A DNA stretch of 64,000 nt, from the sequence record PV654517. One strand, 5' to 3'. A program made the position numbers and the translations under genes. The DNA is from Escherichia phage vB_ECOLIGBLB0003. How positions within the stretch are numbered: the first letter of the stretch is position 1; each line of letters begins with the position of its first letter. The notes beneath the pieces were generated by a model. It saw nothing but the letters and a program-made list of their open reading frames with translations, was not told the DNA's origin and did no database searches. Positions 13,859 to 14,947 of the stretch are shown piece after piece.

Positions 13859-14947
13859 CGTATGTTCGATTGAGCTCGCTAATTCTCAACCCGTTCTCTT
13901 ATGAACTGCTGCATGTTACCATGCAGTCCAGACTATATCACAATCCCGGAGGGATTCTCCCCATTTCGAGTCGCTTGACCCTACGTCCGAAGACTAGTCG
14001 TTGAACCTTGTTTTGCAATTGTCGCCGTGCCATCGTTTATATGTTGATGGTGATAAATCTTTCTTATCACAATATGGACAATTCAATTGAATTCTATTTG
14101 GATTTAATTTACATCTGTCATTATGTTTTAGATAAAATCCAGGACCTTTACCAATGTGACCACAGAAATCACATGTGATTTCTTTTTGTGCAGGATGGGT
14201 CCCGTTCTTAACCATTTCTAATGTTTTTGCTGATGTTCTTTTCTTATGGTCTTCTGATAAGAAATGATGTGAACCGTCATTTACCCGTTTTGATTGAGTT
14301 TCTGACTGCATTTTACCACCGCAAAATACATGAGTACCTTCTTTTATAGCTGCAATATTGCGTTCTTTAACTTTTGCAATATGCTCAGCTTGTTGAAAAT
14401 TATGTATACCTAATGCAACTCTATTTAAATTAGATTTACGCTGTATTTCACCGTCTAAAAGATGAAATGTACCATTTTCTATCTTAGATTTAATAGAGGC
14501 AATATTTTTAGCTCGTACTTCAGGGATATTAAAAATCTGGATTTCTCTAGATTTTGCGGCTTTAGAAGCTAATTCAGAAATTTCTTCAGGAGAATATTTC
14601 ATTCTAAGCTTTATAGCATGACAAGCCTGGTAATCTTTTTGAGCTAAATGTATATCATAATGTTCCTGTATAGAAAGGCACATCAAATTATCTAAATCAT
14701 TATTTTCACGGTTACCGTCTTTATGATGGATTTCGTATGTTCTTCCATCAGAATCTTTAGGTATAGGTCCGTTAGCATCTATCCAAATTTTTCTATAGTT
14801 CAATTGTGCATCCTCTTAAAAGTATAATCATATTTATATTATACTAATTAAAGGTGCAAGCAAAACCTTGGCTGCTAGTTTTCCATAAAGGACTTTCCAG
14901 CAATTAAAGGAGTTTTCGATAAACGTTACCGTTTAAAGGCGCATTTT
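13859..14947 (-). mobile_element. group I self-splicing intron in nrdB (~1.09 kb) carrying a homing endonuclease ORF
   Basis: interrupts a conserved NrdB segment; exon 1 ends in U; 3-prime core resembles the td intron core (CTGCATGT.ACCATGCAG...TTTCGAGTC.CTTGACCCTAC). Confidence 0.8.
13994..14803 (-). CDS. intron-encoded HNH homing endonuclease, I-TevIII-like, 269 aa
   Basis: HNH motif EIHHKDGNRENNDLDNL; C-terminal Cys zinc finger; first in-frame codon is TTG behind an AAGAGGA Shine-Dalgarno. Confidence 0.8.
   Translation of the reverse strand: MNYRKIWIDANGPIPKDSDGRTYEIHHKDGNRENNDLDNLMCLSIQEHYDIHLAQKDYQACHAIKLRMKYSPEEISELASKAAKSREIQIFNIPEVRAKNIASIKSKIENGTFHLLDGEIQRKSNLNRVALGIHNFQQAEHIAKVKERNIAAIKEGTHVFCGGKMQSETQSKRVNDGSHHFLSEDHKKRTSAKTLEMVKNGTHPAQKEITCDFCGHIGKGPGFYLKHNDRCKLNPNRIQLNCPYCDKKDLSPSTYKRWHGDNCKTRFND

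Follow-up and report, generated by a model that had tools for sequence, protein, structure and literature searches.

A full-length, RB3-type nrdB group I intron with a TTG-initiated I-TevIII gene in Escherichia phage vB_ECOLIGBLB0003

Introduction

The closest described relatives of the locus considered here are two group I introns of the phage gene nrdB: that of RB3, which carries the gene for the homing endonuclease I-TevIII, and that of T4, a 598-nucleotide (nt) deletion derivative. The locus itself lies in a 64,000-nt stretch of DNA from Escherichia phage vB_ECOLIGBLB0003 (sequence record PV654517), called the window throughout, and consists of a split nrdB gene, the intron that divides it, and an open reading frame (ORF) for an HNH endonuclease inside that intron. 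With a probability of about 0.93, the element is a Tequatrovirus (T4-like phage) nrdB group I intron in its full-length, RB3-type form, with a functional I-TevIII homing endonuclease gene. An nrdB intron with intact I-TevIII is already known and well studied, a textbook element that the window adds to one more T4-like phage.

I-TevIII of RB3 is a characterized homing endonuclease of the HNH (beta-beta-alpha-Me) class. Alanine substitution showed H26, H27, N39, and H48 to be catalytic, and mutation of C211, C214, C242, and C245 impairs DNA binding (Robbins et al. 2007, PMC1865063). I-HmuI (SPO1) and other intron HNH enzymes likewise combine an N-terminal HNH module with an extended DNA-binding region (PMC1865063), but I-HmuI is a monomeric nickase, whereas I-TevIII dimerizes, cuts both strands, and binds DNA by two zinc fingers.

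For all three T4 intron endonucleases, expression depends on a late (or middle) promoter close in front of the ORF, and on read-through transcripts the ribosome-binding site (RBS) is buried in a stable hairpin (PMC2988022, PMC3014915). An operator resembling the homing site may additionally allow autorepression, which is proven only for I-TevI and is putative for I-TevIII (PMC2988022). The T4 copy of the nrdB intron needs MobE for its mobility (PMC2790892).

The interrupted nrdB gene

The gene is read from three consecutive segments:

15623..14948, minus strand: nrdB exon 1, 225 complete codons and the first base of that for Cys226, ending ...TTT TAT GTA TCT TTT GCG T (...FYVSFA + T)
14947..13859, minus strand: nrdB intron, 1089 nt, group I (IA2-type), RB3-type full-length form
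13858..13356, minus strand: nrdB exon 2, from the GT of Cys226 to the stop codon, beginning GT ACC TTT AAC

The intron begins with AAAATGCGCC and ends with ...GAACATACG (last letters ...CATACG), and the codon it divides, that of Cys226, is read as T in the first exon and GT in the second. Its removal gives an intact nrdB reading frame, the joined exons forming a 1179-nt coding sequence (CDS) for an R2 product of 392 amino acids (aa). This product aligns with E. coli R2 (E value 1.4e-126) without a gap at the junction (ALEAIRFYVSFAC), where ALEAIRFYVSFACTFNF stands opposite ALEAIRFYVSFACSFAF of the E. coli protein, and it is identical to RB3 NrdB at 381 of 392 positions and to T4 NrdB at 361 of 392. 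A preliminary description of this DNA, made from the letters alone, had split nrdB after FYVSFA, within a Cys codon, by a group I intron of ~1.09 kilobases (kb); its junction, given with a doubt of 1 nt either way, turns out to be exact to the base, and the minus-strand intron measures 1089 nt and has ORF-less copies that pass the Rfam group I model RF00028.

The RB3 intron shares with that of the window its insertion site, architecture, 269-aa ORF, TTG start, Shine-Dalgarno (SD) sequence, hairpin, and late promoter. The introns are 99.1% identical as DNA and the two proteins agree at 267 of 269 residues, the differences being Y23 in the window versus D in RB3 and T265 versus A. The window intron (1089 nt) and that of the RB3 records (1090-1091 nt) differ by two 1-nt indels, one in L5 and the other close to the 3′ end, and one P9 pair is swapped, G-C versus A-U. 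Judged by identity (99.1-99.8% to dozens of phage records), the architecture of the window intron lies far beyond chance.

In T4, the ribozyme core outside the ORF and the expression signals are identical to those of the window, and the two introns share the 5′ 210 nt, TTG included, as well as the 3′ end of the ORF. The T4 intron is without 491 nt (window about 14735..14245), a deletion between two CATA microhomologies (14739..14736 and 14248..14245). Because 491 is not a multiple of three, the T4 frame opened by TTG stops after 22 codons, and the 97-aa protein annotated as 'I-TevIII' in T4 uses a different frame, opened by an internal ATG. The alignment with both introns, which the preliminary description had proposed as a check, pairs the window with RB3 over its full length and with T4 as a deleted form.

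The locus is correctly annotated, on the minus strand, as nrdB join(15623..14948, 13858..13356) together with an I-TevIII gene that occupies 14803..13994 and starts with TTG. Many deposited relatives annotate the locus as two 'partial' nrdB genes plus a 'hypothetical protein', and the importance of the locus goes little beyond its proper annotation.

One stretch of NrdB, aa 172-200 (15024..15110, minus strand), is the only part of the protein that diverges strongly from T4 NrdB. This segment of ~28 aa includes a 4-aa length difference, and here the window agrees with RB3 and not with T4.

The endonuclease gene and its start codon

The ORF within the intron and the elements discussed with it are as follows:

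14803..13994, minus strand: I-TevIII ORF of 269 codons and a stop, starting with TTG and looped out of P6a
14660..14794, minus strand: HNH catalytic module, aa 4-48 (Pfam HNH_3, E value 6e-13), with H26, H27, N39, and H48
14015..14173, minus strand: two zinc fingers, CX2CX12HX3C at aa 211-231 and CX2CX13HX3C at aa 242-263 (motif scan)
14817..14812, minus strand: SD sequence AAGAGG, 8 nt upstream of TTG

The protein is orthologous to RB3 I-TevIII, being 267/269 identical and encoded in the same intron at the same site, and when residues are counted from TTG the catalytic H26, H27, N39, and H48 and the zinc ligands C211, C214, C242, and C245 all fall at their published positions. Compared with the ORF of Salmonella phage S16 (89% DNA identity), the ratio of nonsynonymous to synonymous substitution rates (dN/dS) is 0.117 with dS 0.575, and by this measure the frame is under purifying selection from its very beginning. 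Going by the RB3 enzyme, the gene would encode a functional homing endonuclease, and its product, with an HNH module and two zinc fingers, would bind intronless nrdB as a dimer, as demonstrated for the 99% identical RB3 protein. A 269-aa full-length HNH ORF, unlike the truncated T4 copy, had been described from the outset, and the HNH_3 match and the 598-nt length of the T4 intron agree with that account; it had also named a C-terminal zinc finger, which is present, although the motif scan finds two fingers and not one.

The TTG start is real and is the accepted annotation, in the database since 1991, and is not new. In the I-TevIII frame, TTG (14803..14801) is the first possible start after a TAA four codons upstream, with no ATG, GTG, or TTG lying between them, and the frame has no ATG before codon 41, which lies past H26, H27, and N39. 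In record X59078 (RB3, 1991, Eddy & Gold) the I-TevIII CDS spans 191..1000 and base 191 is this same TTG, at which the CDS of the RB3 genome record KM606994 also begins. The published residue numbering (H26, H27, N39, H48; C211/214/242/245) fits only with TTG as residue 1, which argues for the same start. The preliminary description, which had placed a TTG start behind an AAGAGGA Shine-Dalgarno sequence, is borne out by both records.

The surroundings of the start are strongly conserved. AAGAGG is invariant in 15 of 15 sampled phage copies, including two that are without the ORF, AAGAGGATGCACAATTG is invariant in the window and in all 13 sampled ORF-bearing copies, and the 90 nt around the start region are 100% identical in 73 of 126 records. 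Synonymous change is found as early as codon 2, where S16 has AAT for AAC and where HY03 and AV114 also differ synonymously.

UUG is a weak initiator in E. coli and probably lowers endonuclease output further. In the searchable open-access literature, no paper was found that mentions the UUG start of I-TevIII, and none on its effect on output. The UUG start may add to the known tight control of endonuclease expression.

A sequence search of the PDB with I-TevIII found no relative among its chains. Residues 74-114 in the linker region (14462..14584, minus strand) give a marginal match to Pfam FlgM (anti-sigma-28) at 26.2 bits against a cut-off of 25, which is probably a compositional coincidence.

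The group I ribozyme

The ORF separates the ribozyme into two halves:

14860..14951, minus strand: 5′ half, comprising P1, P2, P3, P4, P5, P5′, P4′, P6, and P6a
13859..14016, minus strand: 3′ half, comprising P6a′, P6′, P7, P7.1, P7.2, P3′, P8, P7′, P9, P9.1, P9.2, and the terminal G

In P1, exon GCGU pairs with intron GCGC, with a U-G pair at the splice site in 14 of 14 sequences, and the last base of the intron (13859) is a G. The last eight codons of I-TevIII and its stop codon double as P6a′, P6′, J6/7, and P7.

An Rfam scan of the whole window returned nothing at the gathering threshold and nothing at an E value of 0.001 or below. As a way around an ORF that splits the RF00028 covariance model, naturally ORF-less copies of the same intron were scanned, and those of PD112 and DCP80 match the model throughout, at 68.6 and 74.1 bits, in an alignment that places the ORF in the P6a loop. 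A structure from P1 to P9.2, including the P7 pseudoknot, was drawn by hand on an alignment of 14 distinct ORF-trimmed copies; it contains 89 pairs, with 99.8% of cells paired. Compensatory double changes affect 8 pairs, in P2, P7.2, P9, P9.2, and the expression hairpin, compared with 0 in all six slides of the model (-3 to +3 columns), and the observed values were reached in none of 500 shuffles. Most modelled pairs never vary because the aligned sequences are closely related.

With its ORF cut out, the window intron is base-for-base identical to the T4 nrdB intron. The T4 intron self-splices, and this identity of the core suggests that the window intron would do so as well, in a guanosine-dependent reaction. 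Its RNA would fold into an IA2 ribozyme and excise itself from the nrdB pre-mRNA, with splicing after the U of GCGU and after the intron's own terminal G, which would restore Cys226 and the 392-aa R2 subunit.

Expression signals upstream of the endonuclease gene

Three elements described or proposed for T4 precede the start of the ORF:

14858..14807, minus strand: RBS-sequestering hairpin, predicted on read-through (early/middle) transcripts
14838..14831, minus strand: T4 late-promoter consensus TATAAATA, within the hairpin loop
14869..14846, minus strand: putative operator-like sequence, matching the homing site of intronless nrdB (the junction of exons 1 and 2) at 18/24 positions

The hairpin has a minimum free energy of -14.9 kcal/mol (z = -3.75; none of 200 shuffles equally stable) with the whole SD sequence paired, and other phages preserve the helix, one of the changes there being compensatory. 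An RNA starting at 14825, just past the late promoter, leaves the SD-UUG region unpaired (z = +0.47). The promoter is assigned because the sequence is identical to that of T4, in which the promoter was mapped (PMC2988022). Sequence and folding thus give the late promoter and SD-burying hairpin of T4-type temporal control. The operator-like match, whose score 2 of 200 shuffles also attain, is the counterpart of the putative operator that PMC2988022 proposes for I-TevIII.

Taking the sequence here together with the published T4 model, early and middle read-through transcripts would hold AAGAGG locked in the hairpin. Late transcripts would begin at the TATAAATA promoter in the hairpin loop and, since they would not include the 5′ arm of the hairpin, ribosomes could bind them and initiate at the UUG that follows the SD sequence after 8 nt. 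The 'weak, regulated initiation' suggested in the preliminary description is plausible, the documented control being the late promoter and the hairpin with possible autorepression.

The hairpin loop (14825..14845, minus strand) varies by indels among phages, with the stems preserved. HY03, S16, DCP80, and AV114 have insertions in the loop, and U5, F26, SG1, and an IMG/VR contig are without 6 nt of it (8 alignment columns) and have lost the TATAAATA consensus.

Distribution and decay among phages

Relatives were sought in the GenBank phage collection with a 2.4-kb query and with the intron only. The longer query matched 927 phage records, 92 of them with coverage of at least 80%, and the intron matched 190, of which 84 were full-length. 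Intron identity is 99.8% in phage G2285, 99.7% in SHFML-26, and 99.1% in RB3; for T4 and related phages coverage of the window intron is 56%, and for a few phages only 28%. A scan of IMG/VR with I-TevIII peptides found a single locus, a T4-like deleted copy, a sample too small for a census.

Reduced and disrupted copies take several forms. In PD112 (304 nt) and DCP80 (309 nt) the ORF-less intron is exactly what results from a deletion between two copies of a 7-nt direct repeat, ACAATTG, that bracket the ORF on the minus strand, one at 14801..14807, which holds the TTG, and the other at 14016..14022, which abuts P6a′; the SD sequence, hairpin, and promoter are kept in both phages. The I-TevIII gene has a premature stop after 65 codons in U5 and a 1-nt insertion right after the TTG in Klebsiella phage EI, while in AV114 an in-frame internal deletion shortens the product, counted from the TTG, to 101 aa. 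A 2-nt deletion is combined with a T4-like deletion in F26 and the IMG/VR contig, and the nrdB intron of SG1 is 420 nt long. Full-length, frameshifted, internally deleted, and cleanly ORF-less copies thus coexist in T4-like phages, the life cycle of a homing endonuclease within one gene.

Strength of the assignment and alternative readings

Several points weigh against the assignment of a full-length intron with a functional, UUG-initiated I-TevIII gene. Splicing, translation, and cleavage in this phage are read from sequence identity. In a region-restricted search the window intron reaches only 35.7 bits on RF00028, a partial match below the gathering score of 50, a shortfall explained by the 810-nt ORF that splits the covariance model. 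The window has 8 occurrences of the consensus TATAAATA where 9.5 are expected, a count not above chance, and the motif alone is not evidence of a promoter. As for the start codon, the invariance of its surroundings is weakly informative because the sampled relatives are close (mostly >96% identity), PMC2988022, in a general phrase that covers all three T4 intron enzymes, gives them an 'AUG initiation codon', and the UUG assignment comes from annotation, numbering, and sequence, not from the N-terminus of native I-TevIII.

Two alternative readings concern a second start codon beside the SD sequence:

14811..14800, minus strand: out-of-frame ATG CAC AAT TGA, with ATG at 14811..14809 and a TGA that overlaps the TTG (TTGA)

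That a nearby out-of-frame ATG opens a 3-codon mini-ORF had been noticed from the letters, and the sequence reads exactly so. The invariant AAGAGG-AUG-CAC-AAU-UGA/UUG could be a dosage device, in which a weak UUG and a decoy AUG hold I-TevIII to a trickle even on late transcripts. Such a device would be a fourth control layer beside promoter, hairpin, and operator, and the AUG-UGA/UUG arrangement is never discussed in the searchable open-access literature, but the proposal is a long shot, and the UUG with its overlapping AUG...UGA is unlikely to be a distinct mechanism.

A related reading, in which ribosomes would initiate at AUG 14811, make Met-His-Asn, stop at the UGA overlapping UUG, and reinitiate at UUG, with coupling or attenuation setting endonuclease dosage, is harder still to credit. 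All sampled ORF-bearing copies have the AUG CAC AAU UGA/UUG overlap without variation, and overlapping stop/start coupling is common in phages. However, E. coli ribosomes need about 5-9 nt between SD sequence and start, and AUG 14811 follows the last G of AAGAGG with a spacer of 0 nt, whereas UUG lies at the ideal 8 nt. The conservation of this AUG is explained by its U and G, which pair with UGCA in the stem of the RBS hairpin (3′ arm), and its bases are not kept for the sake of the ORF, since the ORF-less copies of PD112 and DCP80 still keep AAGAGGATGC. The adjacent AUG is probably a by-product of the SD and hairpin sequence, structural rather than a functional mini-ORF.

Another reading holds that the open frame of the window is an accident in a gene already non-functional or decaying, like that of T4, and that the intron is no longer independently mobile. 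Decayed copies are indeed frequent (T4 with its 491-nt deletion, U5, AV114, F26, SG1, and the ORF-less PD112 and DCP80), but in the window all 269 codons are open, every experimentally defined catalytic and zinc-ligand residue is present, and only 2 residues differ from active RB3 I-TevIII. At one of these, residue 23, the Tyr of the window is also found in S16, HY03, U5, SHFML-26, and others, and the Asp of RB3 is the outlier. Loss of function is accordingly very improbable.

Least credible is a start of translation farther downstream, at AUU or AUA near codons 6-8 or at the AUG of codon 41, with the segment from UUG untranslated: UUG is a weak initiator and the annotation of Klebsiella phage EI puts the start 15 nt downstream, but the 1-nt insertion after TTG forced that different start call, no SD sequence precedes the alternative start codons, the HNH_3 match begins at residue 4 and codon 2 changes synonymously in S16, HY03, and AV114, and a start at Met41 would drop H26, H27, and N39, which are essential for cleavage (Robbins 2007).

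The td intron and other endonuclease genes

A full-length nrdB intron with I-TevIII is not the only intron and endonuclease gene of its kind in the window, which also holds the following:

20410..19395, minus strand: td intron, 1016 nt, group I, interrupting td
20279..19542, minus strand: I-TevI ORF in the td intron, 245 aa, GIY-YIG, with an ATG start 7 nt after AAAGAGG

Both introns are group IA2 and share long identical blocks in P6′/J6-7, P7.2/P3′, P7′, and P9. Among these 3′-core blocks are GTAGGGTCAAG.GACTCGAAA, GATATAGTCTG, and CTGCATGGT.ACATGCAGC, in keeping with the preliminary description, which had seen blocks shared with td in the 3′ core. As in the nrdB intron, the ORF of the td intron is looped out from the ribozyme core and is preceded by a late promoter and a hairpin over the RBS (PMC2988022); unlike nrdB, td is a different host gene and the enzyme is of the GIY-YIG and not the HNH type, with an ATG start. 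Rfam, at the gathering threshold, also missed the td intron of the window.

A free-standing HNH and NUMOD3 endonuclease of 213 aa (15620..16261, minus strand) fills the gap between nrdA and nrdB, its ATG overlapping the nrdA stop and its own stop overlapping the nrdB start. Its first 60 aa are nearly identical to MobE of T4 and RB3, and its C-terminal half is different, ending in a CX2CX13HX3C finger that resembles the second finger of I-TevIII (E value 5e-4). Among the 40 records listed, the 3′ end of this gene is common only to SHFML-26, ELT1, and HY03. Its position is a known endonuclease hotspot, and the gene appears to be a modular variant of MobE.

More distant I-TevIII-like HNH genes (29-49% identity) occur in STP4-a and in Serratia phage X20, at 1186..1791 in both. 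In both phages this free-standing gene is flanked by gp68, the gene for the head scaffold, and gp21, that for the prohead protease. These distant paralogues start with ATG, and the TTG start is therefore peculiar to the intron lineage.

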